Assembly: GCA_043819075.1 (NCBI GenBank)
Contig: JBDRFE010000026.1
Location: forward strand, 1 to 43,946
Direction of reading: 5' to 3'
Source of the DNA: an archaeon
GTDB lineage: Archaea > Iainarchaeota > Iainarchaeia > Iainarchaeales > 1-14-0-10-31-34
Length of the DNA stretch: 43,946 bases
Positions 9,044 to 43,946 of the stretch are shown here, piece by piece (position 1 is the stretch's first letter; the number at the start of each line of letters is the position of its first letter). The notes beneath the pieces are model-generated. The model was not told where the DNA came from, searched no databases, and worked only from the letters and a program-made list of their open reading frames with translations. A program made the position numbers and the translations under genes.

Positions 9044-9074
9044 GCCTTTTATTTTATGGCTGCTTAATTTATTC

Positions 9075-9638: not shown

Positions 9639-9640
9639 TG

Positions 9641-11131: not shown

Positions 11132-11250
11132 TCTTCACTTCTAAAATATAATGTTGAAGTTATTTAAAATAACTCGCTTAATTTTTTTGTTTAATATCTT
11201 ATCCAATAATCTTTTTTTGTGTGAAACCCGCCAAAGGTTTTGTTTTCTTA

Positions 11251-11269
11251 CCCGCAAAACATTTAAATA
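11251..11269 (+). promoter_or_regulatory. Putative BRE + TATA box of the major pilin gene
   Basis: CCCGCAAAAC-A-TTTAAATA about 60 nt upstream of ATG 11329. Strong Shine-Dalgarno GGAGG at 11317-11321. Confidence 0.6.
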
Positions 11270-11328
11270 CAATTAACATTCTAATAGTATTCAATCATTG
11301 TTTTTTAAAAATTTAAGGAGGAAGATAA

Positions 11329-11769: not shown

Positions 11770-11785
11770 ATTTAAACTTCCACTC

Positions 11786-11916
11786 TTTTTTTCTTTTTTT
11801 TTATTTTTAGCTGGCAATTAATGCCTGTTTTTTTTTGCTGTTTTTCTTTTTTTTATTTTTAATTAGCAATTAGTGTATGCTTTTTTTTTGCTTATTTTGC
11901 TTTTTTTGTTTGTTTT
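11786..11916 (+). terminator. Oligo-T terminator region with an imperfect ~52-bp tandem duplication
   Basis: Several T7-T9 runs after the pilin stop. Copies at about 11788-11839 and 11841-11892 (TTTTTCTTTTTTTT(T)ATTTTTA...GCAATTA...TTTTTTTTTGCT). Confidence 0.55.
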
Positions 11917-12905
11917 TATGTAAGTGACCTGAAAGAGTTTTCCAGTATGGCTAATACAATAAAATAAATCACATATGATGCGATTAACATTAAGGGAATG
12001 TATTTTATTCCGCCTTTTTCGCTTCTTGAATTGATTATTCCTATTGTAAGTGAGCCGAAAACAGATATCATTGCCAAGGTAACTAAAGAGAAAAGCAGGA
12101 TGAATTCAGGGGTTATAAGCATACCGCCTGTTCCTACTCCAATGGCAGATTTTGATGAAACCATTGCAGCTGTTTCTGTCGGAATGCTTCCGATTCCTCC
12201 CATTTGTTTTGACATTATTTTTACAATAAAAGAGCTTATCCCAAACATTAATGGAGCGCCAATCATTGAAGCAAAAAAAATCAGTATTACGTACATTGAA
12301 ACATTTCCTTTTACTTCTTCTTGTAATGCATTTTGTTCTCTTAAGTCATCTGATAATTGGATGAGCAGGTTAGCCATTTCTCCGCCTGAATTAATTCCTT
12401 CTGTTATCAGCCAGATAGTCCTTTCAAATGTTTTTGATCGGATTTTTTGTGTCATTTCCCTTAATGCAGTTTCAGTTCTTTCTCCTGTCATCATTTTTTT
12501 GCTTGCCTGCTTTAACTCCATTTCTAATGGCCCGAACTCTGGCCTTGCAGAAACAAGCAAAGCCTTTTCTGTTGTCAGCCCTGATTTCATGTTTGATGCA
12601 ATTAACTGCAAGGCGTCTGGCAGGATTTTTTCCACAAACCTTGCTTTTGATTCTCCTGTCTGGTTCAATAAATAGTAAATGCTTCCTGCGGTAAGGAAAA
12701 AACCGATTACAAAGCCTACAATAAAGTTAATCCAGAAAAAGTATGTTAACGCAAATCCTATTGCAAAAGCCATTGCAATGCTTAAGACTATTATGAATCC
12801 AGCAAAATTTTTTGAATCAATGTCTATTCCAGAGTACCTTAATTCTTTTTCAAATTCTCTAAGCAAATTGTTTGGAATCATTCTTCCAATTCTTTCGTAC
12901 AGCAT
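11916..12905 (-). CDS. Type IV pilus platform membrane protein (T2SSF, TadC-like)
   Basis: LPDALQLIASNMKSG, EFGPL, SGG motifs. N- and C-terminal TM pairs. Lies in the ATPase operon. Confidence 0.9.
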   Translation of the reverse strand: MLYERIGRMIPNNLLREFEKELRYSGIDIDSKNFAGFIIVLSIAMAFAIGFALTYFFWINFIVGFVIGFFLTAGSIYYLLNQTGESKARFVEKILPDALQLIASNMKSGLTTEKALLVSARPEFGPLEMELKQASKKMMTGERTETALREMTQKIRSKTFERTIWLITEGINSGGEMANLLIQLSDDLREQNALQEEVKGNVSMYVILIFFASMIGAPLMFGISSFIVKIMSKQMGGIGSIPTETAAMVSSKSAIGVGTGGMLITPEFILLFSLVTLAMISVFGSLTIGIINSRSEKGGIKYIPLMLIASYVIYFIVLAILENSFRSLT

Positions 12906-12908
12906 TTT

Positions 12909-13805
12909 TTATCCCATTAAATTTGGTGTCTTTGATTTTAATATTCCTAAGTACATGAATTCTCCTACTGCAACAAACATTAACAGCATCCAAAAAAGAA
13001 GCTCGCCTAATTTCATTTGCGGAAAAGAAGAAAGCACTATCAAAAACGTTACCCCAAGAGAAGGAATTATTACCCCTAACATCATGTACATTAATGAAAG
13101 CAGTTTCATTGAGTTTCCATAGCGGGTTATCTGCAGTTTTTCTTCTCTAATCATTGTTGCCACTAATTCTTCCATTACTTGGCTTACGTCTGCCCCTGCT
13201 TTCATTCCGTTAATTATCTGCCAGATGCTTCTCCTGAAAAAAATTGACGGATTATATCTTGCAATTTTTTCCAGTGCAGCTTCTTCTATTGTTCCGGTTT
13301 CAATTTCTTTTACTGCTTTCCTGAATTCAGTTGATAATGCGCCGTAATCCCCTTGAGCTATAATGTTTAATGCATTGAATAAAGATACTCCTGATTTTAT
13401 TTCAACTGTCATTGTCCTTAAAGCAAAAATTAAATTCCTTTCAATTTCTCTTACTTTTTGTTTTCCCTTCATTTTAGGGTATAATGCAACCTGAACCATT
13501 ACAAAAAGGCCCAATAATATTCCTCCAGCCAATCCTGCTAAAAGAAACAAGTCAGGCAAAAGCCTTACTCCGATTAAAACCGCTATAACAAACCCAAGTA
13601 ATGCATATATTGCGCCCATTGCAAGGATTATTGAACAGTATTCTTTGTCTTCATAAGATATTTCTGACTGGCTTAATTCAAGCTTTAAGTAAGGAAAAAG
13701 TTTTGACAGCTTTAAGCCTAATCCATAAAACTTTGCTGAAACCCCTTTTATCACAGGCAATGGCATGAAATTGAACGGAATTATTGTGCTTTTATCTGTC
13801 TCCAT
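12909..13805 (-). CDS. Type IV pilus platform membrane protein (T2SSF, TadB/TadC-like)
   Basis: NLIFALR...IKSGVSLFNAL...YGALSTEF pattern and TM helices. Directly after the ATPase. Confidence 0.9.
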   Translation of the reverse strand: METDKSTIIPFNFMPLPVIKGVSAKFYGLGLKLSKLFPYLKLELSQSEISYEDKEYCSIILAMGAIYALLGFVIAVLIGVRLLPDLFLLAGLAGGILLGLFVMVQVALYPKMKGKQKVREIERNLIFALRTMTVEIKSGVSLFNALNIIAQGDYGALSTEFRKAVKEIETGTIEEAALEKIARYNPSIFFRRSIWQIINGMKAGADVSQVMEELVATMIREEKLQITRYGNSMKLLSLMYMMLGVIIPSLGVTFLIVLSSFPQMKLGELLFWMLLMFVAVGEFMYLGILKSKTPNLMG

Positions 13806-13814
13806 TTTTTTCCC

Positions 13815-16800
13815 CTAAAATTTTGGTTTTTTGTTTTCTTGCACCATTTTAATTATTTCGTTTTTGTCCATATAATAGTTTGCCATTATTTTTCCAACTT
13901 CTTTTATCGGCCTTATCTTATTTTTTACAAGCCAGTCAAGAATAGATTTTTTTGTTTTTAGTTCGCTTGTCATTTCCTGTTTGCTGAATCCTGTATGCAA
14001 TCCAAGTTCATCAAACAATCTCACGCTTTCAGAGTGCTTTTCAATTGAATCTATTGCTCCCTTCCACCTGTATAAAACATTTGCTTTTACTTCTTCTTCT
14101 GAACCCCTTCTTTCTGTAATGAATTCAGCTACCTGTAAAACTCTTCTTACATTCAGCCTTCTGTTCCTGAACATTACCACATTCAAATGAACTGAATCAA
14201 GCATTGTTTTTGGCACGTCAATTGGAGGATTTGTAAGCCTTCTGATTGTTTCTTCTGCAGTGTTTGCGTGAACTGTAGTGTAAGCTGAATGCCCTGTATG
14301 CATTGCTTCAAACAATACTTCTGCTTCTCTCTGCCTTCTAATTTCTCCTACAATTAATCTGTCAGGCCTCATCCTCAAAGAGTTAATTAAAAGCTGGAGC
14401 ATTGAGACTTCTCCTTTTCCTTCAACATTTGGTTCTCTTGTAGTTAATGGCACCCAGTGAAGATAAGGGGGGAGCGATAATTCCCTTGTATTGTGGCATA
14501 CAATGTTGTCTGCTATAAAGCTTTCGTTTTCAGGCACACTGAAATCATATACAAATCCTTCAAATTTTTCTGTTGAAATTTTTTCTATTCTGTCCCATTG
14601 AAGGTCATTGAACGCAAGTTCCTGTAACGAAAAAGAAATTTTTTCAGGATATTTCAGGATAATTTTCTGAAGGTTTTCCCTTCCGATAACTCCCCTGTAT
14701 TTCAGGCTTTTCCATCCCTTGTATGTTCTGGTTTTCCCTACTTCTTCTTTTAATGCTTTCTTTATTTCATTATGCATTTCTTTTGTTATCGGAATAATAT
14801 CGGTTATATCATGGTTTACAGAAGTCAGCCATTTTTCTGAGGCAGTATTTTTTTTGTTTATGCAGAAGCCTATGTCTTCAACGTATTTTTTCAGGAATTT
14901 GGTTCCAGAAATTCTTGCCTCAAAAGTTTTGTCTTTTAGCAGTTTCCATTTCACTCTCAGCGGAATGCCAAATCTTGATAAGAGTGTCTGCATATCTTTC
15001 AGCAACTGCATTGAACTTGACCTGACAGCAATATCGTTTTTTCTCACCCAACCGTCTCCTGAAAAATACCCGTTCAATAAAGCAGCAATTTCTTTTCTTT
15101 TAAGAGAGAAAACCCATTCAGGAACTTTTTTTGTGTAAGCGTTTCCTTTTAATTCAAAAACATTTTCCATCAGCTGTTTTACTGGTTTTGAGTTAACCAT
15201 TAAAGTAAACCCGTCTGAATGCATTTTAGTTTTAAGATTAAATCTTTCTGCAATGCATTCAACTGTTTTTCTTGCTTCAGGCTCTACAATTGACATTAAC
15301 ACACTGTTTTTGTCATAGCATCCGTCTGCAAGCCATATTCCAATAAACCTTGCGAACTCTTCATCTATTTCAATCTCCAGCGGGATTTGTGTTCCCTGCC
15401 CTGAAGAAATCCAGCCTTTTTGAGGGATTTTTTGTATTGTTTTAATCATTTTGACTGAAGCCGTGTTACGCATTATTGAATTCTGGATTGCTGATTTCCC
15501 AAAACCGTTTTTCAGCAATGTCTTGTTTTCTTTCAGCAAAGCTCCTATTTCGATGCTTTTCATAAAGCAGCCGTCAAATGCATTCATGTTTTTTCTTAAG
15601 TCAAAAGAAACTTTTTTTCCACTCCAGTTTTGTTTTCTTGGGGTTGCAATTAAAGTATTTTCATTTAATGAATTGCCTTTTATGGCTTTTATTTTGCCTT
15701 CTCCGAAAGTGAATAAAGAATGGTCTGGCGTTACTTTTATTTTTCTCCCGCTTTTCAAAGTAATTTCCATTAAATCTTTTTTTACCCAGTGCCTGATAAA
15801 ATTGCTTGGCTTTTTCCATTCAATTATTCCTTTTTTGTTCATGCTCTGTATTTCAATTTCTTCGTTGTTTTCAAGTGAAATATCTTTTATTGAATCATCT
15901 TCAATTATTCCATCAATCAATTTTCCGACAGTTGTTTTTTTTGTTGTTCCTTCGTGGCTGTAAATTATTTCACTGTTCCCGCTTACACTGTCTTCAATTG
16001 AAAGGATTCTCTGGTTTGGCTGGATAAACGGCAAACAAACATTTAATGAAGTTGTTTTTCCAGAGCCTGTTCCTCCTGAAAAAATAATGTTTAATTCGTA
16101 TTCCATTGCAAGCCAGATTAAAGCCATTACTTCTGTGTTGACTGTCTTGTTTTCAACAAAATCTGTTACAGTGTATGGTTCTCTCCTGAATCTCCTGATT
16201 GTTATTGTGTTTCCTTTGCTTGAAATAGGGAATAATGTTGCATTAGCTCTGTCTCCTGTAATCAAGTGTGCATCAAGCAATGGATTCAATATTGTAATCT
16301 GTTTTCCTATTCTTCTTGCAATAATGCTTGCGTAATTTTGTATTTCGCTTTCAGGTGAAATAAATACATTTGTTTTAAGCCAGCCATATCCTTTATGGTA
16401 AACCCAGATAGGTTCTGTTGCGGCATTAATCACTATTTCTTCCAGGTTTCCGTCATTCAACAAGAATTCTATTTTTCCTAATCCAAGCATTTCTTCTAAC
16501 AGCATCCCGATTAAAACATTTCTTGATCCTTCAGCTATGTTTGGCAGTTCTTTGTCTAAAACTTTTTCTGCTTTTGCCTGGAATTTTTTTTTCAAGGAAT
16601 CAACAAAATCAGGGTCCATCATTCTTTCTGCCTGAATAGTTGAATCAGTTATAATGCTTCTTTTCAGGTTTTCCAGTACTGCTTCTGTTCCCTCGCCGAA
16701 TTCAGGGAAATCAAGCAAATAAACCCTTACAAATTCTTTTTCCCTTTCAACTATGTTTACTTCTATTTCTGTTTCAATTGATTTAATCTTGTATGTTTCA

Positions 16801-16817
16801 AGGACTTTTTCTCTCAT
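13815..16817 (-). CDS. Type IV pilus assembly ATPase (VirB11/TadA/CpaF family), intein-containing
   Basis: Walker A GGTGSGKTT, Asp box SIED|TREL, LRMRPDRLIVGEIR, AMHTGH, TTVHA. Spliced product would be 500 aa. Confidence 0.95.
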   Translation of the reverse strand: MREKVLETYKIKSIETEIEVNIVEREKEFVRVYLLDFPEFGEGTEAVLENLKRSIITDSTIQAERMMDPDFVDSLKKKFQAKAEKVLDKELPNIAEGSRNVLIGMLLEEMLGLGKIEFLLNDGNLEEIVINAATEPIWVYHKGYGWLKTNVFISPESEIQNYASIIARRIGKQITILNPLLDAHLITGDRANATLFPISSKGNTITIRRFRREPYTVTDFVENKTVNTEVMALIWLAMEYELNIIFSGGTGSGKTTSLNVCLPFIQPNQRILSIEDSVSGNSEIIYSHEGTTKKTTVGKLIDGIIEDDSIKDISLENNEEIEIQSMNKKGIIEWKKPSNFIRHWVKKDLMEITLKSGRKIKVTPDHSLFTFGEGKIKAIKGNSLNENTLIATPRKQNWSGKKVSFDLRKNMNAFDGCFMKSIEIGALLKENKTLLKNGFGKSAIQNSIMRNTASVKMIKTIQKIPQKGWISSGQGTQIPLEIEIDEEFARFIGIWLADGCYDKNSVLMSIVEPEARKTVECIAERFNLKTKMHSDGFTLMVNSKPVKQLMENVFELKGNAYTKKVPEWVFSLKRKEIAALLNGYFSGDGWVRKNDIAVRSSSMQLLKDMQTLLSRFGIPLRVKWKLLKDKTFEARISGTKFLKKYVEDIGFCINKKNTASEKWLTSVNHDITDIIPITKEMHNEIKKALKEEVGKTRTYKGWKSLKYRGVIGRENLQKIILKYPEKISFSLQELAFNDLQWDRIEKISTEKFEGFVYDFSVPENESFIADNIVCHNTRELSLPPYLHWVPLTTREPNVEGKGEVSMLQLLINSLRMRPDRLIVGEIRRQREAEVLFEAMHTGHSAYTTVHANTAEETIRRLTNPPIDVPKTMLDSVHLNVVMFRNRRLNVRRVLQVAEFITERRGSEEEVKANVLYRWKGAIDSIEKHSESVRLFDELGLHTGFSKQEMTSELKTKKSILDWLVKNKIRPIKEVGKIMANYYMDKNEIIKMVQENKKPKF
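14490..15989 (-). mobile_element. Intein (500 aa) with LAGLIDADG homing endonuclease in the pilus ATPase
   Basis: Starts SVSGNSEI. Block B VTPDHSLF, LAGLIDADG motifs IGIWLADG and LNGYFSGDG, block F VYDFSV, ends VCHN followed by +1 Thr. Confidence 0.95.
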
Positions 16818-17897
16818 TCAACCATTCCTCTTCTTTTTTTTCTCTTTTTTTGGCACCACATAATTTTTTGCAATGAGTTTTGCCCCGCCAAACACAGGAA
16901 ATTCAAGTTTCACTAAATCGTTTTTTTCAAGGACAGCATAACATTGCTTTATTCGTTCAGAGCTTAACCCAAGCAGTTTCCCTGCTTCTTTTTCATTTAC
17001 TATTCCTTTCTTTTTCACTAATTCAAGCAGCCTGTCAAAATCTGTTACAATCTTTTTTTCCTGTATTTCTTTCATTTTTCCCGTTTTTTCCTCTTCTTTT
17101 TTCATTTCGCCCACTGTTGTTTCTGCAAAGGTTTTATCCCTTATTATCTCAGTTTTTTTTGCATATTTTCTCTCTATTGCATCAAGTATTCTGTCAAATC
17201 TTTTCATCAGGTCTTGAGGCGATATAAACTCAAATTCCTTTCTTATATCTCCTTCAGAAATATTGTTTTTCTTCATTGTTTTAACGATTTTTTCTTCCAT
17301 CTGCATTGCTGTTTTGTCTTTTATCGTCGGTGCAATTCTTTTTACTATTCCAGTAGGTTTTATTGATGCTTCTAATTTTTCAGGGGATTCAATTTTGTAT
17401 ACCCCGCTTGGCCCGCCTCCTCCAAAATAAGAATTTGATGTGAATTCTTTGTGAAAGGTTTTCATTGCTTGTTCTAGTTTCTGTTTGCTTGAAGGAGTGT
17501 GTTTTACTGCTTCTTCAATTTGTTCTTCTTGCACAGTTTTGAGTTCTGGTTTACCCTCAATTTCTTTTACTGCACTTTCTTTCATTGGTTTTGGCCTTCT
17601 TTTTTCTATTTCAATGGTTTTTAGTTCTTCATCATATTCAAAGAGTTTTTTCCTGTAATCCTCTTCATTTATTTGCCTGTGGAAAAAAGCTTTTTTCAAG
17701 TTCTTTATTTTTTCTTTTGTTTTTTCTATTTCAAAATTGATTTCTTCCTCCCTTTTTTGCTGCATTTCAATTAATTCTTTTTTGCTTGGTTCTGTTTTTC
17801 CCGAAACTGTTTTCCCTGTAATGATTTGTGCATCCCCTTTTATGCTTACAAGGGTTTTTTCTTTTCCAGTTGTAAATTCTTCATGAAACTGCTTCAC
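16818..17897 (-). CDS. Pilus-locus charged coiled-coil protein with a C-terminal winged-helix-like domain (C-terminal part of a frameshifted gene)
   Basis: C-terminal TDFDRLLELVKKKG...AGKLLG...LEKNDLVKLEFP looks like a wHTH. The frame stays open upstream of GTG 17897 into the poly-A region. Confidence 0.75.
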   Translation of the reverse strand: MKQFHEEFTTGKEKTLVSIKGDAQIITGKTVSGKTEPSKKELIEMQQKREEEINFEIEKTKEKIKNLKKAFFHRQINEEDYRKKLFEYDEELKTIEIEKRRPKPMKESAVKEIEGKPELKTVQEEQIEEAVKHTPSSKQKLEQAMKTFHKEFTSNSYFGGGGPSGVYKIESPEKLEASIKPTGIVKRIAPTIKDKTAMQMEEKIVKTMKKNNISEGDIRKEFEFISPQDLMKRFDRILDAIERKYAKKTEIIRDKTFAETTVGEMKKEEEKTGKMKEIQEKKIVTDFDRLLELVKKKGIVNEKEAGKLLGLSSERIKQCYAVLEKNDLVKLEFPVFGGAKLIAKNYVVPKKEKKKKRNG

Positions 17898-17952
17898 TGC
17901 TTTCTTTTTTTTTTCGCCGAGGGCTTGTTCTCTTTTCTTTTTAAGTTCTTCT

Positions 17953-18564
17953 TCAGGGGTGATAAAAGAAATTTTTTGCCTTGTTTTTCTTTTTTTCTTT
18001 TTTAATTGAACATTTTTCTCTTTCTTTTTTTTCCTTGTTTTGTTCTTTTTTTTTTTCGGTTTCTGTTCTTTCTTCTGCAGGTGTTATTTCTTCTGTTTCA
18101 GGCTCTTCTTCTGCCCTTTTTTTCTCCTTTTCTGTTTTTTTTTGTCTTGCAAATGCTTTTATTTCCCCTACTTTTTCTTCCAGTTCTTTCTTGAGCTCAA
18201 GTATTTCTTTTCTATGAAAACCAATTTCTCTCGCAATTTTTCCCCTTTTTCCCTCTTTTTTCCTTATTTCTTCAGCAAGCTTGACCACTTCTCTTATTTT
18301 TTCTTTTTCTTTTTCTTTTTTTGTTTTTTTTTCTAGTGTGAGAAGCACGTGCTGTTTTTCAAGAATCATTTCTTCTAATTCTTCAACTTCTTTCCTTTCA
18401 AGCGTTTTTTCCAGTTTTTCTATTTTTTCTTTTTCTTTTTTCGGTTGTTTTGTGAACAGGCTTTTCAGTTTGTAAATAAGGCTGTTTCTTTTTGTTTCCA
18501 GCTCTATTCTTTTGACTTCCAGCATTCTGCTTATGAGGAATTTTTTTCTTGCCTTTTTTTTCAT
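17953..18564 (-). CDS. Lys/Glu-rich coiled-coil protein, N-terminal part of the same frameshifted gene (about 581 aa if joined)
   Basis: Low-complexity K/E ORF that overlaps the open downstream frame across A11 (18046-18056) and A8 (18025-18032) runs. Confidence 0.65.
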   Translation of the reverse strand: MKKKARKKFLISRMLEVKRIELETKRNSLIYKLKSLFTKQPKKEKEKIEKLEKTLERKEVEELEEMILEKQHVLLTLEKKTKKEKEKEKIREVVKLAEEIRKKEGKRGKIAREIGFHRKEILELKKELEEKVGEIKAFARQKKTEKEKKRAEEEPETEEITPAEERTETEKKKEQNKEKKEREKCSIKKEKKKNKAKNFFYHP

Positions 18565-18611
18565 GCAAAAACCGTATTTATTTTGTTATTTGTTCTTTTT
18601 AATTGATTCTG

Positions 18612-19469
18612 TCATCTTTTTTCAATCCCTGTTGTATAATCCATTATTCTTATGAAGCCTTCAGGGAATTTAATATAAGGTGTTATTCCTGTGCTTCCAA
18701 AGTCTATTCCGCTTTTGATTTCCACTTGAACCGAGTTGTTGTTTAAAAGAATCATTTTTGCAAATGGTTCAATAAAAATGTGCACATCTTTTTCCGCTTC
18801 CCCGCTTGTTTCAACAACAATTTCACAGCTAAGGTTTGGGTCAAGATTGCAGTAACTTACAGTTTCTTCCGGAACTTTGACGCTGTTCCTTACAATTAAG
18901 GTAAGGCAGAAACCGTTTGGGTCCCCTGGGCTCATACAGGAATTGTTTTCAATATATATTCCATTGAACGTCTGGTTTTGGAGAGTTATGTCCACTAAAT
19001 AAGAATTAAAGTCAAGGGAGGCAGGAGCATATTCTATTGTATTGTTTGTCCTGTTTCCCCTTCCAGGCGCGCTTGCGTGAAAAAAGTTAATGTCGTAAGG
19101 CCCAATAACTATTTTGTTCATGTCTTGTGTGTTAATTGTTATGTCTAATGCGTCTGTATGCTCCTGAAGGAAAAGAACGTATTTGTTCAGTGAAGTGTAA
19201 AAGTTTATTTGGCTTCTTTTGTCGGGCAGGTCTTCAGTGAAATAAATGTAGTCTGTCCCAATGTTTATGTCAATTTCTGTTCCGTTAATCATTATGTCAA
19301 ATATGTTGTCTGCAATGTTTTCATATTTATAGTCTACCCTGTTTACCATTGCATAGTTTTCCATGCTTTCCCTTGCCCCAAGTGAATTGTTTTTCAGAAA
19401 AGAAGAAAAATTAAGGAAAGTAATTCCGACAAGAAGAATCATCACAGAAAAAATGAATCCTTTTTTCAT
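18612..19469 (-). CDS. Minor pilin-like protein (class III signal peptide)
   Basis: MKKG|FIFSVMILLVG followed by a beta-rich extracellular region. ATG overlaps the upstream stop. Confidence 0.8.
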   Translation of the reverse strand: MKKGFIFSVMILLVGITFLNFSSFLKNNSLGARESMENYAMVNRVDYKYENIADNIFDIMINGTEIDINIGTDYIYFTEDLPDKRSQINFYTSLNKYVLFLQEHTDALDITINTQDMNKIVIGPYDINFFHASAPGRGNRTNNTIEYAPASLDFNSYLVDITLQNQTFNGIYIENNSCMSPGDPNGFCLTLIVRNSVKVPEETVSYCNLDPNLSCEIVVETSGEAEKDVHIFIEPFAKMILLNNNSVQVEIKSGIDFGSTGITPYIKFPEGFIRIMDYTTGIEKR

Positions 19470-19930
19470 TTTGTCCACACCCAATATTCAGAGACATAAT
19501 ACTTGCTGATTTTTTTTTCTGCAAAAGAAAGAAATATTCGGTTTCCTTTTATTACATCTTTTTCGCTTAAATCCTCTGAATTATTCCCTGTTGTATAAGT
19601 TCCTGTCTGCCTGAAGCTGTCATTTTCTTCTATGAATTCACTTATTGTTATTCTCCACTCATACTGTGTTCCAAAAGCAGAATCCATTTCTTGCTCTATT
19701 CTTGTCAAATCAAGCTGGCTGAAAATTCCTTTTCTGTCCATTATGTCAAATAAATCATTCACTTTTCTTTGTCCTTCAATTTTTGTCATAATGTTGTCGC
19801 TTTGATAAAAAGGATTAAATGAATTCATGCTTATGAAAAGGAATGCAATAATCAACGCCAGCAGCGCATCTGAAGTGAAAACAAACCCTTTAGCCGTAGA
19901 TTTTGAAGTAAATTTCAGATATTTCTCCAT
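19466..19930 (-). CDS. Minor pilin-like protein (class III signal peptide)
   Basis: AKG|FVFTSDALLALII signal. Start uncertain (19930 or 19939). Confidence 0.8.
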   Translation of the reverse strand: MEKYLKFTSKSTAKGFVFTSDALLALIIAFLFISMNSFNPFYQSDNIMTKIEGQRKVNDLFDIMDRKGIFSQLDLTRIEQEMDSAFGTQYEWRITISEFIEENDSFRQTGTYTTGNNSEDLSEKDVIKGNRIFLSFAEKKISKYYVSEYWVWTK

Positions 19931-20378
19931 TGTATTCAACCACCCTTTTTATGCTGACAACTTTTTCTGAATTGCTTAGGTAAGACGGGTTGGTGTCATC
20001 AAATTTTTCTTTTACTGTAAACCCGTCCTGTTCTATTGAAAAATAATAATTGTAGCCTAAAATGCCAAGTTTTTCAACCGACTCCCCGTAACCCATTTCA
20101 AGAAAAGCTTCAAGCTTTTCTTCATTTATAACCCTTCTTTCATTCACCAAACCAATGATGTTTACATCTGAAACAGCTTGCCAGTTTTCGGGAAACCCTT
20201 TTGTCATGACCAAGTTGTTTGCTGTGCTTGAAGCAATTCTTTTCATTTCCTTTTCAGTAACTTGTTCAATGGAATAAGAATTGTTCAGGCGGTTCTGTGA
20301 AATAAAAGCAAAAAAAATAAGAAAAACTATTGCTATTGCAAAGAACAAGTCAATTGAAATCGCTTGGCCTTTATTCAT
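19890..20378 (-). CDS. Minor pilin-like protein (class III signal peptide)
   Basis: MNKG|QAISIDLFFAIAIV and GFPENW motif. RBS GGTGA upstream. Confidence 0.85.
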   Translation of the reverse strand: MNKGQAISIDLFFAIAIVFLIFFAFISQNRLNNSYSIEQVTEKEMKRIASSTANNLVMTKGFPENWQAVSDVNIIGLVNERRVINEEKLEAFLEMGYGESVEKLGILGYNYYFSIEQDGFTVKEKFDDTNPSYLSNSEKVVSIKRVVEYNGEISEIYFKIYG

Positions 20379-20740
20379 TCAATCACCACATTTCCGTCAT
20401 AATTATAAATTTTTATGTTCCCTTTACTGCTTGAATCAAGAATTTTTCCTGAAGCAAAGCATTCAATGCTTTCGTTTTCATCATTTGTCACTTTTATAAA
20501 GCCTTGCCTTAAAAAAGAAATATTGTAATCGCTGTAGCCGTTCCATTCAATGTATTTTCCAGAGGCATGCATTTCTGAAACAATTGCCGCAATGTGCTCG
20601 CATTCTGTTTTAAGTTCAACAGTTGTTTTCACCACCCTGATTGAATTCTGCTGATTGATTAAAGAAATGCTGATAAGCAAGAAAAAAACCATTGCTATAA
20701 TTACCGCGATTATTGCTTCAATGCTTACTTGCCCTTTCAT
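20375..20740 (-). CDS. Minor pilin-like protein (class III signal peptide)
   Basis: MKG|QVSIEAIIAVII signal. Confidence 0.85.
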   Translation of the reverse strand: MKGQVSIEAIIAVIIAMVFFLLISISLINQQNSIRVVKTTVELKTECEHIAAIVSEMHASGKYIEWNGYSDYNISFLRQGFIKVTNDENESIECFASGKILDSSSKGNIKIYNYDGNVVIE

Positions 20741-20746
20741 TAAAAT

Positions 20747-22165
20747 TCACTTCACAAAACTTACGGTGTAAACACTGCTGTCACTAAATTCAAAATCAAT
20801 TGTGTAGGCGTTCCCGTTTCCAGCGGCACTAGAGAATTTCATTTCGTTGTTGGAAGTGTAGAGAGTGTTTGCAGTGACAAGGGTTCCCGCAGGCCAGTCC
20901 AAGTTAACCCAGTTTGCAGTAGGCGCTCCTGACCACACAGTATCTCCGTTCAATTCTATTTCGTTAACCATTATTCCAGAAGAAACATTCACTCTCATCC
21001 TGTTTATTGTTATATCAGGCGAGCAAACATTTCCATAAGCGAAGTCAACAAGCCTTGTTCCGGTAGTGTATGCATCTGAGTAATCAAAGCTGAATTTGCT
21101 TGCTTGTGTTGCAGTGTCTATTTGGAATGAATTGCTGTCGCTTGCAGAATCAAATTTTTTTCCTTGCGCAAGAATGCTCCATACCCCTGTTTCTGAAGTG
21201 CAGGAAACGCTTTCTGTTCCAAGATAAATCCCGTTTGTAGTGGCCAAGCCGGTTAAAACGCTTTGGCTGGTCACTGGAGGAGGGTCGCTTAGTGTAATGT
21301 TTAAATCGCTTATGTCCATTACCTCACCTATATGGTCTGAAACGCTGACTTTATAATAAATTGTTTCTCCCTGATAAAAAATTGTTTTTGGGGTGCTGTA
21401 ATTTGCGTCGCCAAACAAGCTTACATTAATGTCTTTGAGCACATGAGGCACTCTTATTTGAATAATTGATTTGTCTATGTAGCCTTCAGCTGAAAATAAT
21501 TCAATGTATCCGCTGTAATCTGTTGCAGGATGTGTTGTGGCAACAGACCAGTTAACATCAAAATTTATTGTCTGATTAGGATTAATTATGCTTGCAAGTA
21601 TCCTGCTGTTTTCCCCGTTAAGGCTTGCAATGTCTGTAATATTTCCTTTTAAAGTTACATTCAAGTCTGCTAATGCCCTGCTGGTGTTGTTCCAGACAGA
21701 AAAAACATTTGAATCATTTGTCCCTGGCCTAATAGCCCTAATAAACTTTGCAGGAATTATTGTCAGTCCCCCGCCAATCCTTGTCGTGCCTGATTCCAGT
21801 ACTTGAACAAGAACAAAATGTCTGCCTTGTTCTGTTGGCAGTTCTCCAACAACAAACGCTTTTGTATTTTCATAAATATCTGTGTTGGTGCCGCTCAAAT
21901 TCAGCAGATAGCCTACTTGGTTATTTGAAACATATTGGCCTGTAATTCCGCCTGGAATTTCTATTTCAACAAACAGCTGATTTTCTGGACCAAGCGAGTA
22001 AACACTGTCAGCTGCTTTTGCCAGAGTTTTTACAGCGTTTTGTGTCATGGAAATATCTATTGTAGTTGAAGCATTCATTTGAGAGAAAACAAACAAGAAT
22101 GCTGAAATTGAAAGAATTATTGCAGACAACACTAAGTATTCATTGCTTATTTGGCCTTTTTCCAT
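20747..22165 (-). CDS. Large pilin-like/adhesin protein with Ig-like beta domains
   Basis: MEKG|QISNEYLVL signal, LAKAADSVYSLGP pilin motif, Thr/Ser/Asn-rich beta-strand C-terminus with many NxS/T sequons. Confidence 0.85.
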   Translation of the reverse strand: MEKGQISNEYLVLSAIILSISAFLFVFSQMNASTTIDISMTQNAVKTLAKAADSVYSLGPENQLFVEIEIPGGITGQYVSNNQVGYLLNLSGTNTDIYENTKAFVVGELPTEQGRHFVLVQVLESGTTRIGGGLTIIPAKFIRAIRPGTNDSNVFSVWNNTSRALADLNVTLKGNITDIASLNGENSRILASIINPNQTINFDVNWSVATTHPATDYSGYIELFSAEGYIDKSIIQIRVPHVLKDINVSLFGDANYSTPKTIFYQGETIYYKVSVSDHIGEVMDISDLNITLSDPPPVTSQSVLTGLATTNGIYLGTESVSCTSETGVWSILAQGKKFDSASDSNSFQIDTATQASKFSFDYSDAYTTGTRLVDFAYGNVCSPDITINRMRVNVSSGIMVNEIELNGDTVWSGAPTANWVNLDWPAGTLVTANTLYTSNNEMKFSSAAGNGNAYTIDFEFSDSSVYTVSFVK

Positions 22166-38638: not shown

Positions 38639-39799
38639 TTACTTTAAATACAGGTAAGCGTAAATTATTATTCCGATTACAGCCAGCAGGCTTCCTGCAA
38701 TAAGTTCTTTTGGAAGGCCTTTTTCTTCAAAGATTATTGCTGTTTTCTTGCACTCGGTTTTTTCCTGCCCAAAAGTTAATTCGCATCCTAATTCAAATTC
38801 TCCTGCGGCATCTGATTTGGCTGTTGTCCTGAAATAAACTGTTTCTTTTGGCTGGATTACTTCAAATTTTTTGTTTTTGCTTTCAAAGGTTATTCCTGAA
38901 TCAGCAAAAAGTGTTATTTCTGAATTGTGGACTGCGTTCAATGAATTGTTTATTATCACTATTTCTATTTCACTTTTTTCTCCAACAGAATTAATCTGTT
39001 TTTTCAGCATTATCACTGGTTCAAGTGCTTTTTGGGTTGAAGGGAATATTTCAGGGTAATTTGATTCAATTTTTTCTTTTTCCCCGAATGCATTGAAATA
39101 GTATGCGTCTGCATTTGGAAGGACTCTGGTGTTTTCGTTTTTCAGCCTGTAAGTGTATTCAAGCGAAATTTCCTGCCCTGGAAGTATTTCTCCTTTAAAA
39201 GAGCTGTTTCCTTTGACTAATTCAATGTCTGTTCTTTCAGCGTCACCGTCAATTATTTCAACAACAGTTTTTTCGTTCCCGTAATTTTTCAGCGAGGTTT
39301 TAATCATGATTTCGTTGCCGACAATTCTTTCTTTTGATATGACTTCTTTTCTGAAACTGTTTTCAGGGAAAAAAGCTGTAGTGTAATTCCCTATGCTTGA
39401 ATCATCAAACACATTTATTCTTGTTATTGAATCCGAAGTAAAACTGCATAATTTCAGGGTGTTTTTTTCTTTAAGTTTTTCTTTTTTTACTGTAATTCTT
39501 TCAAACTCTTTTCCTTTGCCTGGCTCTATAACCAAAACCAGTTCGTTGTTCAAAAAAACATTTATTTTTGCGTTTCCTTTTGTGTCTGGAGTGAACTCAG
39601 AATGAACTGAAATAACCGTGAATTCTTCTTGGTTGAATTCATCGTAAAAGATTATTTCCCTGCATTCTTCTTTGTTTGCCCCGTCAAGCACAAATTCTTC
39701 ATAGCCGATTGAATCAAATGTTTCTTCTTTAATTGTTTCTGCATGAACCGTTAAGCCGGCTAAAATAACCAAAACCAGAAAAAAGACTGTTTTCTTCAT
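38639..39799 (-). CDS. Secreted Ig-like (BatD/CARDB-like) protein with a C-terminal TM anchor
   Basis: Signal peptide, LKNYGNE and ILPGQEISLEY Ig-fold motifs, C-terminal TM. Confidence 0.75.
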   Translation of the reverse strand: MKKTVFFLVLVILAGLTVHAETIKEETFDSIGYEEFVLDGANKEECREIIFYDEFNQEEFTVISVHSEFTPDTKGNAKINVFLNNELVLVIEPGKGKEFERITVKKEKLKEKNTLKLCSFTSDSITRINVFDDSSIGNYTTAFFPENSFRKEVISKERIVGNEIMIKTSLKNYGNEKTVVEIIDGDAERTDIELVKGNSSFKGEILPGQEISLEYTYRLKNENTRVLPNADAYYFNAFGEKEKIESNYPEIFPSTQKALEPVIMLKKQINSVGEKSEIEIVIINNSLNAVHNSEITLFADSGITFESKNKKFEVIQPKETVYFRTTAKSDAAGEFELGCELTFGQEKTECKKTAIIFEEKGLPKELIAGSLLAVIGIIIYAYLYLK

Positions 39800-40686
39800 T
39801 TTTTTCCCTTTATTTTTTTAATTATTTCCTGCAGCGAACTGTTTAAAGATTTCTCGTTTTTTATTTCAATTACTTTTTTGTAGTTTTTAAGGCATTTTTC
39901 CCTGCAGTAGCCTGTTTCCTCGCAGAATACGTTGTCCTGTATTTTCACTTCATTATAGCCTTTTTTCCTGAGCCTTTTTTCAATTATTTCTGGTTTTGTC
40001 CTGAGCAGGAAAACCATGTCTGCTTTTATTTTCATTTCACATAATACGTGGCCTTCAATTATTGTTCTTGTTTTTTTTTCCAGCAATTCATTGAGTTTTT
40101 TCCGGAATTCTTTTGTGTCTATTTCAACTTCTTTTCCTTTTTTTTTGCCTGTTTTTGTTTTTAATGCAAAATCCTTTTCGTTAATCACTTCAAATTTAAG
40201 TTTTTTCCCAAGTTTTTTTGCAATAGCGGTTTTTCCTGTTCCAGGAGTTCCGGTAATGACAATATTCATTTTTTTCCTGAAGAATTTGCTGAAAACTTTT
40301 CCTGTAATTAATGAAAAAACTGTTATCGGGATTTTTGTCAGCTCAAATGCAAGTGAATCAGTTTTTTTCCCGTTCACTTTCACTGCTTTTCCCACAATAT
40401 TTTTTTCATTTATTTTTTTGTCAAACCTGTTGTTGTTGTCTCCTTTTACAAGGAAATTTTTCCCTTTTTTTCCTAGAATGCGGTGAATAACAAATTTTCC
40501 TTTAGAGTAATACGCTGCGATGTCCCCTGTTTTAAGTTCTTTTGGAGAAATTATTTTGATTTCAACCTCTGATTTTTCCGGAATCAAAGGATACATGCTT
40601 TTCCCTTTTATTTTTACTTTTATTTTTTTTCCAGAATTTTTTTCCCTTAAAAATTCAATTGCTTTCTCTATTGTTTTTTCTTTCAT
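39796..40686 (-). CDS. Fusion of an S24/S26-type serine peptidase domain and an AK6/Fap7-type adenylate kinase
   Basis: Residues 1-139: GKSMYP, GD, IHR, KGDNN. From Met140 (ATG 40269): ITGTPGTGKT, IIEGH, RLRKKGYNEVKIQDN. Confidence 0.88.
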   Translation of the reverse strand: MKEKTIEKAIEFLREKNSGKKIKVKIKGKSMYPLIPEKSEVEIKIISPKELKTGDIAAYYSKGKFVIHRILGKKGKNFLVKGDNNNRFDKKINEKNIVGKAVKVNGKKTDSLAFELTKIPITVFSLITGKVFSKFFRKKMNIVITGTPGTGKTAIAKKLGKKLKFEVINEKDFALKTKTGKKKGKEVEIDTKEFRKKLNELLEKKTRTIIEGHVLCEMKIKADMVFLLRTKPEIIEKRLRKKGYNEVKIQDNVFCEETGYCREKCLKNYKKVIEIKNEKSLNSSLQEIIKKIKGKK

Positions 40687-41655
40687 TTAATCACTAAAAC
40701 AACCGTATTTTTGTTTGTCAAATTCTTCTTTTATTTCTTTTTGAAATCTATGTGAAAAAGTATTATTTTTAGCGTAAAGCACCAGATTGGGTTCTTTAGC
40801 CTGCACATACAACTTCATTATTTTATTTTTTATATGGTAATCTATTTCAAACACACTCCAGCCTTTCCATGTGTTTTCTTTTATTAAATTAAGGTCGCTG
40901 CGAAGCGACCCATTTTGTTCATCAAAATATACTATAAAAGAATGTTTGTTCATTATAAGTTCGCTGAATGAAAAATTTTCATCGCTTTCAAGATAGTTGA
41001 ATAAAAAAGGAATAATAAAAACAAATTCATTTTGGTCGTAGAGTTTTGGGCTAAGAACGCTTTTGTAAGCTTCATCACAGTTTCCTCTTAGTCCGCTTGT
41101 AAAAAATTGAGATGAATTCTTGTCAATCAAAAATAAAAGAAAATAAAACTTTTTTTTCATTTCAGCATAAACCATCCCTTTTGTGAAATCTGCGTTTTCA
41201 TCTAAAATAAATGTGTTGTGGTCTTCAGGGTAAGGGTTGTAATATTCGACTTTATATTGGTATTTGAACCCTTTTTTCAGTGAAATTTTTTCTTTCAAGG
41301 CAATTTTAATTTCAAATGCAATTTTTTTTGTTTTTCCGTCTGAAGGAGTTATTTCAAACACAATATTTTCGGTTTCTGTATCTGGGCATTTTATAGAAAG
41401 TTTGTTTTCCCCTTTTTTTAAGTCAAAATAACCAAAGCACTTTAATTCTTTTGTTTTGCCAGTGACTTCAAATCTTGTTTTTGGGAGTTCTTTTTCTGAA
41501 TTAACTTCAAGTTCAATGCTTTCGCTTTCAAAATCAAATTCGCCTGAATTAATTTCTATTTTGTATTCTTTCATTTCCTGATTTTTCTTTTCAGTGCACC
41601 CTGAAAATATTAATAAGACTAAGATTAAAACCAGAATCAACAATTTTTTGTCCAT
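40687..41655 (-). CDS. Hypothetical lipoprotein
   Basis: MDKKLLILVLILVLLIFSG|C lipobox. ATG 41655 preferred over TTG 41691. Stop abuts the peptidase-kinase start. Confidence 0.78.
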   Translation of the reverse strand: MDKKLLILVLILVLLIFSGCTEKKNQEMKEYKIEINSGEFDFESESIELEVNSEKELPKTRFEVTGKTKELKCFGYFDLKKGENKLSIKCPDTETENIVFEITPSDGKTKKIAFEIKIALKEKISLKKGFKYQYKVEYYNPYPEDHNTFILDENADFTKGMVYAEMKKKFYFLLFLIDKNSSQFFTSGLRGNCDEAYKSVLSPKLYDQNEFVFIIPFLFNYLESDENFSFSELIMNKHSFIVYFDEQNGSLRSDLNLIKENTWKGWSVFEIDYHIKNKIMKLYVQAKEPNLVLYAKNNTFSHRFQKEIKEEFDKQKYGCFSD

Positions 41656-41724
41656 GGCATAAAAAGTATCCTGCAATGTTTTTTTATTCAATTGGATTGT
41701 TATTTAATGTTTGACTGGCAAGAT

Positions 41725-41811
41725 TCATAAAGCGCTTCTAACTGCTGTGCGTTTCTTTACAGATAAACCTATTCTTAGATTGAGTTTTTTTTACAGTTTA
41801 TTGTTATCAAC
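41725..41811 (-). pseudogene. Decayed tandem copy of the putative precursor peptide gene
   Basis: Translates VDNNKL*KKLNLRIGLSVKKRTAVRSAL*, which aligns with MENYKK..KKLNLKMGFSGTKPISPVGTAS*. No ATG, internal TAA. Confidence 0.6.
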
Positions 41812-41824
41812 TGTTTTTTTTGTG

Positions 41825-41920
41825 TTATGAGGCTGTTCCAACTGGACTAATTGGTTTAGTTCCTGAGAAACCCATTTTTAGGTTAAGCTTTTTTATTGCG
41901 GGTTTTTTATAATTTTCCAT
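41825..41920 (-). CDS. Putative RiPP precursor peptide, 31 aa (MENYKKPAIKKLNLKMGFSGTKPISPVGTAS)
   Basis: Translated by hand, below the track cutoff. YxxPxI leader motif, TGATTGA before the ATG as in other genes here, TATA-like boxes upstream, a paralogous copy, and divergent from radical SAM genes. Confidence 0.7.
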   Translation of the reverse strand: MENYKKPAIKKLNLKMGFSGTKPISPVGTAS

Positions 41921-41940
41921 TCAATCAAGCTTCTATTTTT

Positions 41941-41998
41941 TTTATAAACATTAAGTACTGAATTAATATATATTAACTAATCTTTTATTTATATAAAT
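41941..41998. promoter_or_regulatory. Divergent promoter region between the peptide and radical SAM genes
   Basis: Three palindromic TATA-like elements: TTTATAAA (41941-41948), TTAATATATATTAA (41963-41976), ATTTATATAAAT (41987-41998). Confidence 0.5.
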
Positions 41999-42036
41999 GT
42001 TTGTTTATTGTTTTTTTATGTTTTGGTTGTGCGTAA

Positions 42037-43095
42037 ATGAAACTTAATAAAATTAATTCTTTTGCGGTTTCTTATACTAATAAGTGTAATATTGAATGCA
42101 GGCATTGTATTGTTGATTGTGGTCCTGATAAGGGTGAAAAGCTTGATTTTGAGAGGTTTTTGTTGTTTGTCGGGCGATTTAAGGAATTTGGTGTTAAGAG
42201 TTTGGAGGTTACTGGTGGCGAGTCTTTTTTGTTTTTTGATGAGCTTGTAAAGATTTTTTCTGAGGCGAAAAAGCTTGGTGTTTCTAGTAGTTTGATTTCT
42301 AATGGTTTGTGGGGTTTTTCTGAAGAGAATGCTGAAAGGGTTGTATCTGAATTGGTTGGTGCTGGTTTAAAGGGACTTTATATCAGTTCTGATGAGTTTC
42401 ATTTGGAGTTTGTTCCGGCTAAAAGTGTTTTTAATATTGTTGACGCTGTAATGAAACGAAAAGAAAAGGTTAAGGCGGTAATAAAGTTTTGTTATTCAAG
42501 GAATTATTCTTTTTTTGATTTTTTAACTGAAAACGCAGGTTATTTTAAAAATTTAAAGAAAAAGTATCCTAAAAAGAATTTGAATGTGCTTGTTCAGCCG
42601 GTGATTCCGCTTGGAAGAGCAATTGAAAAAGTTCCAAAGGAAAACTGTGTTGCGGGGAAAAAAACCACTGAAAAATTGTGCCCTATGTTAGGTTCTCCTT
42701 TTATAAATCATGATGGAAATGTTTTTTTCTGTTGCAATGGCTCTGAATTAAGTAATCCTCTGGAGGGTGTTTTCTTTTTGGGTAATTTTTATTCTGATTC
42801 TTTTGAGGAATTTGTAAAAAAGTATCAAAAGAATCTTTTTGCTTTTTATGTAAAAGTTAAAGGTCCTGCTTTTATTGAAAAATTGGTTAGAAAGCATAAA
42901 CTGAAGAAAGTGAATAAAATGAAGTATCCTCTTGTTGGCTACACTGGAATATGTGATTTTTGTTTTTGGAATTTAGGCCAATATCTTAAGCAAGATCTTG
43001 ATGACATGTTGTTAGAGGAGTTCAGCAAGGACAAGGCAATGCAAAAGCTTGCTGTAAAAGAGTCATTAAAATTCCGGAAAAACAAAAAAAATTAA
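42037..43095 (+). CDS. Radical SAM protein with a SPASM/twitch-type domain, YydG/EpeE peptide epimerase-like
   Basis: C17xxxC21xxC24, TGGE, LISNGLWG, ISSDEFH, PLGRA, C215, HDG..FC232C233, IC306DFC309. Confidence 0.9.
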   Translation: MKLNKINSFAVSYTNKCNIECRHCIVDCGPDKGEKLDFERFLLFVGRFKEFGVKSLEVTGGESFLFFDELVKIFSEAKKLGVSSSLISNGLWGFSEENAERVVSELVGAGLKGLYISSDEFHLEFVPAKSVFNIVDAVMKRKEKVKAVIKFCYSRNYSFFDFLTENAGYFKNLKKKYPKKNLNVLVQPVIPLGRAIEKVPKENCVAGKKTTEKLCPMLGSPFINHDGNVFFCCNGSELSNPLEGVFFLGNFYSDSFEEFVKKYQKNLFAFYVKVKGPAFIEKLVRKHKLKKVNKMKYPLVGYTGICDFCFWNLGQYLKQDLDDMLLEEFSKDKAMQKLAVKESLKFRKNKKN

Positions 43096-43121
43096 TTTAG
43101 TTTTCATTTGTGTTGGTTTGG

Positions 43122-43946
43122 ATGAAAATAAATAGAATCGAATTATTTGCCTTTTCTTATACTGACAAGTGCAACATTAAATGCGCCCACTGCATTGCTG
43201 GCAGCAGCCCTGAAAAGCATAAAAAGCTCGACCTTGAAAGACTTTTGTTGTTTGTAAAGCAGTTGAAGGAGTTTAATATAAAGAGTTTTGAGATAACAGG
43301 AGGAGAAGCCCTTGTGTTTTTTGACGAGGTCATTGAATTGCTTTCTGTTGGGAAACAAGCCGGAATTTCATCTAGTGTGATTTCTAATGGTTCTTGGGGT
43401 TTTTCTGAGGAAAATGCTGAAAGGGTTGTATCCGAATTAGCTGATGCAGGCTTAAAAGATCTTTTTATCAGTTCTGATGAGTTTCATTTGGAGTTTGTTC
43501 CGGCTAAAAGTGTTTTTAATATTGTTGACGCTGTAATGAAACGAAAAGAGCCTATTAAAGTGTTTTTAAGGTTTTGTGAGTCAAAAAATTATTCTTTCCT
43601 TGATTTTTTAACTGAAAATGCAGGTTATTTCAAAAATTTAAAGAAAAAATATCCTAAAAAGAATTTAAGAGTGCTTACCCAATTTTTAGCCCCGCTTGGA
43701 AGGGCATTTAAAAAAGTTCCAAAAGAAAATTATGTCATTAAAGCAAAGCTTGCTGAAAACCCCTGCAATCTGGTAAAGCGCCCTTTTCTAAATGCTGATG
43801 GAAATATTTTTTGCTGCTGTAATGGCCCTAAACTGAACAACCCTTTGACTGCACCATATTTTTTGGGTAATTTTTATTCTGATTCTCCTGCAGAATTTAT
43901 TAAAAATTATGAGGAAAGCTTTTTTGTTTTTTATTTGAGGACCAAA
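43122..43946 (+). CDS. Second YydG/EpeE-like radical SAM protein (paralog, 3' end outside window)
   Basis: Absent from the ORF track because there is no stop in the window. MKINRIELFAFSYTDKCNIKCAHC..., TGGE, ISNGSWG, ISSDEFH, PLGRA, NPC, DGNIFCCCNG. Open for 275 codons. Confidence 0.9.
   Translation, partial: MKINRIELFAFSYTDKCNIKCAHCIAGSSPEKHKKLDLERLLLFVKQLKEFNIKSFEITGGEALVFFDEVIELLSVGKQAGISSSVISNGSWGFSEENAERVVSELADAGLKDLFISSDEFHLEFVPAKSVFNIVDAVMKRKEPIKVFLRFCESKNYSFLDFLTENAGYFKNLKKKYPKKNLRVLTQFLAPLGRAFKKVPKENYVIKAKLAENPCNLVKRPFLNADGNIFCCCNGPKLNNPLTAPYFLGNFYSDSPAEFIKNYEESFFVFYLRTK

Follow-up and report, generated by a model that had tools for sequence, protein, structure and literature searches.

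Gene content of the locus

We analyzed a 43,946-nt stretch of DNA from an archaeon of the Iainarchaeota (the window), which makes up the whole of contig C26 in a genome of 1.24 Mb (34.6% GC, 90.55% complete) and carries at its right end what is very likely a pathway for a ribosomally synthesized and posttranslationally modified peptide (RiPP). A preliminary description had treated positions 39796 to 43946 as one epipeptide-like system with a short YxxP-leader peptide, two radical S-adenosylmethionine (SAM) enzymes (rSAM1 and rSAM2) resembling EpeE/YydG of Bacillus subtilis, and an S26-type peptidase. The positions that it gave for the 31-aa open reading frame (ORF), the two radical SAM genes, a lipoprotein gene, the S26 domain and a decayed precursor copy were all correct. 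Its extent held from the S26 gene to rSAM2, but 39796-40269 is an adenylate-kinase-like flank gene, which probably lies outside the pathway. The last 141 nt of the window (43806-43946) are identical to the first 141 nt of another contig, G000:C39 (locus L001); the join is based on this overlap and on synteny. When the sequence past 43946 was inspected, as the preliminary description had advised, C39 was found by ORF calls and hidden Markov models (HMMs) to supply the end of rSAM2 and then convergent genes for a PqqD-type RiPP recognition element (RRE), an HprK/ScmC-like protein and an NTP_transf_5 protein. The cluster is therefore larger than the window, and its features are as follows.

39796-40269, minus strand: adenylate-kinase-like flank gene (PRK03839)
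40686-40270, minus strand: S26/SipW-type soluble peptidase (TIGR02228)
ATG at 41655 to 40687, minus strand: lipoprotein, FSGC lipobox-like motif, predicted Ig-like and LolA/MucB-like domains
~41725-41807, minus strand: decayed second precursor copy (DNA and protein similarity)
41825-41920, minus strand: precursor peptide, 31 aa (ORF, leave-one-out leader HMM)
41921-42036, no strand: AT-rich divergent intergenic region (sequence)
42037-43095, plus strand: rSAM1, EpeE-like radical SAM enzyme, 352 aa (ORF, HMM, fold)
43122-43946 (contig end), finished on G000:C39 1-372, plus strand: rSAM2, its paralog
C39 379-633, minus strand: discrete PqqD/RRE protein, 84 aa (PF05402)
C39 674-1570, minus strand: HprK/ScmC-like P-loop protein, 298 aa (weak HMM matches)
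C39 1644-2717, minus strand: NTP_transf_5 nucleotidyltransferase, 357 aa (PF14907)

Beyond the nucleotidyltransferase, and divergent from it, C39 carries genes for a family 4 glycosyltransferase (GT4) and a membrane protein. The window stretch was also present in two groundwater metagenome runs, X1 and X2, of which X2 may be the sample of origin; a contig of X1 covers 39750-42300, differing by six substitutions and showing no gaps.

The 31-aa precursor carries a YKKPxI leader. Plain YxxP was found in 93 of 12,893 short ORFs genome-wide and is therefore weak evidence by itself, while Y[KE]KP near the start was found in this peptide only. Ranking of the same 12,893 ORFs with a leader HMM built from seven other loci, with the window locus left out (the only version of this test that was counted), placed the peptide first at an E value of 1e-4, the runner-up reaching 0.18. 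A peptide with a Y[KE]KPx[IL] leader and a variable core lies beside the enzyme gene in eight of the nine loci having upstream DNA; these counts cover the fetched loci, which are kin, so they are not independent. Tyr, Lys and Pro are invariant in the eight leaders, and comparison of leader pairs gave 93 synonymous and 122 nonsynonymous codon differences. The short YxxP precursor of the preliminary description is thus real, and its suggestion that homologous archaeal loci be searched for such ORFs yielded YxxPx[IL] in all eight precursors found. The cores are alike in nothing but composition: every predicted core has Val or Ile and Ser or Thr, and none of the eight has Cys, Trp, Tyr or His, which disfavors thioether or aromatic cross-links. 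No NCBIfam family matched any of the eight precursors. In the X1 contig one substitution turns Gly20 of the window peptide into Glu. A TATA-like box was seen by eye ~28 nt upstream of the precursor start, and a sigma-70 promoter scan of the intergenic region was uninformative, the model being unsuited to archaea.

The decayed copy on the same strand, which the preliminary description had also reported, is real: its DNA score was reached by 1 of 9,176 genome tiles and its protein score by 11 of 9,176. It has no start codon, no YxxP and an in-frame stop, and it retains 21 open codons. A frameshift artefact as the cause of the dead copy was rejected, the X1 contig having the same letters, and since that contig is without gaps the in-frame stop is probably no assembly error.

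The radical SAM enzymes and conservation of the cluster

EpeE was the nearest characterized enzyme by sequence, HMM and fold, as had been proposed. It was the top PDB sequence match (E 2e-20; next match 1e-6) and the top fold match of a predicted model with a pLDDT of 87 (TM-score 0.70-0.75; SkfB next at 0.50). The cysteines of rSAM1 (C17, C21 and C24; C215, C232, C233, C306 and C309) keep all eight Cys positions of EpeE (PDB 8AI1-8AI6), and C232/C233, the twin Cys in a T-SPASM fold, align with EpeE C222/C223, the numbering of EpeE being fixed through the chain of its D210A structure. In EpeE, C223 gives the hydrogen and Asp210 has been proposed as a proton relay (PMC13012085). Of 10 enzymes linked to a precursor, 9 retain the second Cys, as do 133 of the 149 representatives that were aligned from an EpeE-like family of at least 444 clusters (E 1e-30). 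The ISNGxWG and SxDxxH motifs are likewise in common with EpeE. The EpeE motif set of the preliminary description is complete in rSAM1, but rSAM2 reads VISNGSWG and ADGxxxCCC, and its final motif, MCDFC, lies on C39 and so outside 39796-43946.

Of the analyses that the preliminary description had recommended, the HMM search agreed with EpeE as nearest characterized enzyme, and the phylogeny gave the archaeal enzymes a clade of their own. Against TIGR04078 (YydG), rSAM1 scored 112.3 bits and rSAM2, as a partial protein, 83.8 bits, with a cut-off of 300, and none of the 215 genomes of the phylum exceeded this cut-off. In a FastTree tree of 99 sequences the archaeal enzymes formed one clade (support 0.997) and the true YydG of a Macrococcus epe locus (L050) fell outside it; a single YydG was used, and the deep branches are poorly supported. 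Among 12 scanned neighbors of distant homologs, which were not picked blind, five were RiPP-maturase-like (TIGR03975 over cut-off in L065, L068 and L073, YcaO in L062, a SPASM maturase-like protein in L069), one was an ABC importer ATPase and six had no match at 1e-25.

The two enzymes of the window are 65% identical, are sisters in the tree (support 0.934) and share identical patches of 84 and 50 nt; they represent a recent duplication, parallel to that of the now dead second precursor. Two enzymes are present here, as described, but the pair was rejected as a core feature of the system, as five of five full-match relatives have one. Along 42037-43946 the paralogs form a mosaic, with 48-100% identity per 60 nt around the exact runs of 84 and 50 nt, which suggests gene conversion; they are least alike at residues 201-220, next to the loop equivalent to Asp210.

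At E 1e-15 the enzyme was matched in 6 of 215 phylum genomes, all of the window's family (five of its eight relatives). All five full-match relatives have, in the same order, the S26 peptidase, lipoprotein, peptide, one radical SAM enzyme, RRE, kinase-like protein and nucleotidyltransferase. The S26 and RRE genes of G011 are interrupted by N gaps, G018 has the peptide on the strand of the enzyme, and parts of the cluster were found in G017 and G013 on short or cut contigs. The nucleotidyltransferase, at least, was found in seven of the eight relatives; in G016 the site is empty, with the flanking genes adjacent and the block absent. G017 and G018 carry an additional B12-binding radical SAM enzyme, and in G017 a 44-codon fragment like the start of this gene lies just upstream of the full copy (L141 3076-3210). 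Metagenome loci, of which 20 of 70 were examined (L055 was left out as 99.96-100% identical to L012), added further peptides in L056 and L057 and an independent duplication of the enzyme in L056. Enzymes 46% and 39% identical occur in records titled Candidatus Iainarchaeum and Candidatus Diapherotrites. An alignment scan of genome contigs returned six loci, four close and two weak, and a single-protein locus scan of the genome contigs returned no match.

Relation to linear polyphosphorylated peptide clusters

The genes on C39 and the S26 gene recall the linear polyphosphorylated peptide (LPP) cluster lppAKBSDN of Paenibacillus alginolyticus (PMC13381572). In that system LppK polyphosphorylates Ser3, the peptidase LppS (S29/H68/D93, with an N-terminal helix) cuts after Thr-1 only in the presence of the RRE, and deletion of lppN caused no detectable change (PMC13381572). 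The family was described as restricted to Bacillota, with some clusters in capsule loci (PMC13381572). Its available main text does not contain the words radical, rSAM or epimer; the supplements gave no match for Diapherotrites, Iainarch, YydG or TIGR04078 and hold at least nine archaeal peptidase rows, two with an RRE and none listed with an LPP precursor (PMC13381572). In the pseudomycoidin pathway a homologous kinase acts on a terminal Ser, and the phosphate is hexosylated only if PsmN is present (PMC6993621).

The archaeal RRE matched PF05402 (E 1e-16) and, among PDB entries, 9X8Z (LppB; E 1e-6), 9X90 (4e-6) and TbiB1 (7e-6), a near-tie with lasso peptide RREs. A second, weak PqqD match (E 7.8e-5) occurs elsewhere in the genome at G000:C67 506-691 (L140, L145), directly before a gene that looks by eye like a radical SAM gene. 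The kinase-like protein keeps its Walker A motif in seven of seven sequences and carries the precomputed Pfam assignment PF27840; its profile found no informative relative in the PDB, and it had no plasmid match. The nucleotidyltransferase scored 108.8 bits against PF14907, with DxD invariant in all seven aligned sequences. The GT4 and membrane protein genes are divergent from it in six of the seven genomes with that side visible, the GT4 identity being confirmed by HMM in the window genome only, and by language-model features, a lead only, the membrane-protein ortholog resembles PMT/STT3-type proteins. A conserved short Cys/Lys-rich ORF (~37-42 aa) lies between the membrane glycosyltransferase-like gene and a beta-CASP nuclease-like gene (L010 10635-10748, L012 15031-15228, L013 15556-15684, all minus strand).

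The lipoprotein and the peptidase lacking a transmembrane segment were both present as described. The S26 domain scored 56.7 bits against TIGR02228, over its cut-off of 51.85; by eye its N-terminus is polar, rich in Lys and Glu and without a hydrophobic anchor, and S30, H68, D83 and D89 are invariant in five of five aligned sequences. By analogy with LppS, the soluble protein is a candidate RRE-dependent leader peptidase; the idea that it is the housekeeping signal peptidase was rejected, a separate one sitting on C63. The peptidase had been called unlike that of the Bacillus system, and EpeP is indeed absent from the cluster, but an S26-type RRE-dependent leader peptidase has already been published for LPP (PMC13381572). 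The S26 gene and the adenylate-kinase-like gene (PRK03839, 111 bits, below the cut-off of 152) form one 296-aa frame on the minus strand, 39796-40686, through a run of seven A, whereas in relatives the two are separate genes with an ATGA overlap (three of three shown). A frameshift artefact was rejected as the source of this fusion, and as the X1 contig is gap-free with the same letters the fusion is probably real. In G013, a methyltransferase-like ORF (by eye), not an adenylate kinase, follows S26 at 30-818 (minus strand) of L169 (G013:C119). The model of the lipoprotein (pLDDT 85) consists of an Ig-like domain and a LolA/MucB-like one, and its matches were weak (MucB E 8.5e-4; best fold Z 9.7 amid many similar; Atlas below 0.9).

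As judged from sequence, this backbone of RRE, signal-peptidase-like leader peptidase, HprK-like protein and NTP transferase matches LPP rather than epipeptides. In common with LPP are the discrete RRE, a SipW/archaeal-type signal peptidase with an N-terminal helix, a weakly matching candidate HprK-like kinase and an NTP transferase, a YxxPx[VI] leader followed by a variable core, the lack of a cyclase in the cluster and the glycosyltransferase neighbors. Four of five core LPP genes have a match here, that of the kinase being a weak one, and catalytic motifs agree: the S26 residues S30/H68/D83/D89 compare with S29/H68/D93 of LppS, the positions being read from each protein separately, and the kinase-like protein (DD in three of seven sequences) and nucleotidyltransferase have motifs comparable to DD of PsmK and DxD of PsmN. 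LppA has Tyr at -16 and Thr at -1, and the same Tyr-to-P1 spacing can be applied here; in this register Ala, Gly, Ser or Thr stands at P1 in eight of eight peptides (by shuffling, P was 0.012 for this column and 0.09 when any of eight columns could qualify), which is suggestive only. The LPP spacing predicts cleavage of the window peptide behind Ser19; the core that remains would be 12 residues long, rich in Ser, Thr and Pro, and would contain a single Ile and a single Val. The archaeal cluster differs from LPP in its host, in the added EpeE-like radical SAM enzyme (with a B12 radical SAM enzyme too in G017 and G018), in the lipoprotein, and in predicted cores of 8-20 aa compared with 45 aa in LppA.

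Two other cluster types share parts of this set. The lasso clusters of paeninodin and pseudomycoidin (PMC6993621, PMC8498205) have a candidate HprK-like kinase with a DD-type motif, an NTP transferase with DxD, a YxxP-type leader and a discrete RRE in common with it, but no lasso macrolactam cyclase or B2 peptidase was found among the ORFs of the archaeal cluster, the PF00733 proteins that occur in five of five genomes being unlinked to it. The SynChlorMet cassette (ScmC TIGR04249, ScmD TIGR04248, ScmE/F TIGR04250/1) shares PqqD-like and ScmC-like genes, but scores were far under the cut-offs (ScmD 40 vs 100, ScmF 28.4 vs 400), the enzyme is EpeE-like and not ScmE/F, and the precursor has no Cys repeats; SynChlorMet as a literature term returned no paper. 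Within the phylum, part of the backbone recurs in G166, where genes for an RRE, a kinase-like protein and a nucleotidyltransferase accompany a SPASM enzyme of unrelated type. Its locus L142 (G166:C9), at 1878-11385, contains a nucleotidyltransferase, an ABC transporter, a SPASM radical SAM enzyme, two PqqD matches and an HprK-related protein, and the short-ORF filter found no precursor in it. Other PqqD-plus-radical-SAM units in the same order were seen at L143 7090-8338 (G065), L144 7222-8548 (G173) and L146 6606-7970 (G117).

Elsewhere in the window, 9075-22165 holds what we take to be a locus of type IV pilus-like genes, among them pilins, TadC-like membrane proteins and an ATPase, beside KaiC/RecA-like proteins. 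Two apparent inteins were noticed by eye, each a long insert that ends in HN before C or T: one in a DHH/RecJ-like protein (4700-7633, minus strand) and one in a pilus-assembly ATPase (13815-16817, minus strand).

Proposed pathway, alternatives and significance

The cluster is neither an epipeptide nor a strict LPP cluster; it is a real RiPP cluster. On balance, we lean toward an RRE-dependent RiPP pathway on an LPP-type backbone to which an EpeE-like epimerase has been added. In this scheme, the discrete RRE would bind the YKKPxI leader, as its motif, synteny and likeness to LppB suggest. The twin-Cys radical SAM enzyme would take a C-alpha hydrogen from the core and C233 would supply another from the opposite face; D-residues would result, most probably at Ile and Val if EpeE is a guide; epimerization of core residues by this enzyme is the likelier outcome by analogy. 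With somewhat more assurance, the example of LppK and PsmK points to the HprK-like protein as phosphorylating a core Ser or Thr, and that of LppS makes it quite probable that the soluble S26 peptidase removes the leader from a peptide presented by the RRE. A cut after the small residue 15 places behind Tyr is an even bet. The nucleotidyltransferase, perhaps with the neighboring GT4, might cap the phosphate with a sugar as PsmN does, although we regard this step as doubtful. The product would be a linear modified peptide of 8-20 residues, and the lipoprotein is a candidate surface binder.

A number of observations weigh against this reading. The enzyme is 21% identical to EpeE, and at the position of Asp210 rSAM1 has Gly and rSAM2 has Lys; Asp itself stands there in 2 of 10 enzymes linked to a precursor, is kept in G018, and occurs in 14 of the 149 representatives of the family. 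One precursor-linked enzyme (L057) has Cys-Ser in place of Cys-Cys with the precursor still present, a locus with a clade enzyme (L058) has no such peptide within 3.4 kb, and YydG, at a patristic distance of 4.26, stands no nearer than the four other outside sequences listed (3.5-4.3). As to the backbone, HMM scores of the kinase-like protein against HprK-related and ScmC models are weak (21-32 bits; ScmC 23.5 vs 125), its acidic motif is DD in three of seven sequences, ED in three and DE in one, and the nucleotidyltransferase is split in G014 (L011 6774-7819). Of the LPP leader YxxPxVLxHQxIxFETxxS, the HQxIxFET half is absent, with no HQ or FE; no peptide has the Phe at -3 of LPP, and one would have Pro at +1. 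Ser3, the LppK target, is found in one of eight predicted cores and a C-terminal Ser, the PsmK target, in one of eight precursors. No MsbA-like exporter was seen: the ABC_membrane exporter domain PF00664 was found in none of five genomes of ~91-99% completeness, with 13 of 14 controls positive. Finally, the related genomes are kin, so that the conservation counts are not independent.

Among the alternatives, the one that survives best, though still unlikely, keeps the RiPP pathway and assigns the radical SAM enzyme another chemistry, namely oxidation or dehydrogenation at C-alpha, cleavage of the backbone or formation of a cross-link. The missing Asp210, the low identity and the separate clade suit it, as do the L057 enzyme without the donor Cys and the size of a family in which EpeE is the only close solved member. 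Retention of the second Cys in most precursor-linked enzymes and family representatives, and cores without Cys, Trp, Tyr or His, argue against it, and Cys-Ser is compatible with epimerization, since slow turnover remained in EpeE C223S (PMC13012085). Less likely again, the peptide might serve glycosylation of the cell surface as a carrier or tag that is phosphorylated, loaded with sugar and used with the GT4 and PMT-like proteins. The lack of the exporter domain, the divergent GT4 and PMT/STT3-like pair, which in G016 is gone together with the cluster, and the LPP clusters in capsule loci (PMC13381572) are in keeping with this, but the cores are unrelated across genomes and would better fit a diversifying signal or weapon, the neighbors differ in G018, and an epimerase-like enzyme has no obvious role there.

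It is improbable that the product is an LPP-like phosphopeptide only, with the radical SAM enzyme acting on another protein or small molecule. L058 has an enzyme without a visible peptide, distant family members lie also near non-RiPP genes such as the ABC importer ATPase (L075), and in G166 the backbone genes accompany a different enzyme; yet in all complete loci the enzyme gene is flanked by those of the precursor and the RRE, enzyme and precursor are both duplicated in the window genome, and five distant family members adjoin RiPP maturases. A true epipeptide, that is, an EpeX/EpeE-type membrane-active antibiotic as the preliminary description had it, is very improbable and as a matter of membership largely refuted: EpeE remains the nearest solved structure, but the TIGR04078 scores, the missing Asp210 and the separate clade stand against it, EpeX, EpeP and EpeAB are not among the cluster ORFs, all of which are otherwise assigned, and unlike epeXEPAB (yydFGHIJ), whose membrane protease EpeP and EpeAB are present in the real epe locus L050, the cluster has an RRE-type leader, cores without Trp or Tyr, and precursors without an NCBIfam match. 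That the short ORF is a chance occurrence beside unrelated genes, for which the frequency of plain YxxP would speak, is refuted by conservation, namely the first rank in the leave-one-out test, the codon differences of the leaders and the same position in eight of nine loci.

The backbone is not new, having been published for Bacillota (PMC13381572). A literature search returned no paper for the cluster itself or for a peptide epimerase of the radical SAM type in archaea, with subscription papers and supplements mostly uncovered; a term search of the available text of PMC10288494 and PMC9811515 returned no mention of archaea, and a survey that covered ten Iainarchaeota genomes saw no biosynthetic cluster in them, a result put down to small sample size (PMC9902471). 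The eight natural enzyme-substrate sets, with short, synthesizable peptides, are suited to testing whether the large EpeE-like family epimerizes, whether such enzymes can do without Asp210 and whether they can be recruited by an RRE, and they offer a second setting in which to study what the LPP nucleotidyltransferase does. A reduced-genome archaeal family here retains a seven-gene pathway with a fast-changing core. Tentatively, this DPANN-type family may keep the pathway for a linear peptide that is epimerized, carries phosphate or a phosphate-linked sugar and is C-methylated in some members. Such a peptide might come to the surface with no ABC exporter involved and be held there by the LolA-like lipoprotein, serving as a recognition signal or weapon specific to the strain. 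If so, an archaeon would be the source of a RiPP with D-amino acids, of which the search found none, and LPP chemistry would reach beyond Bacillota.

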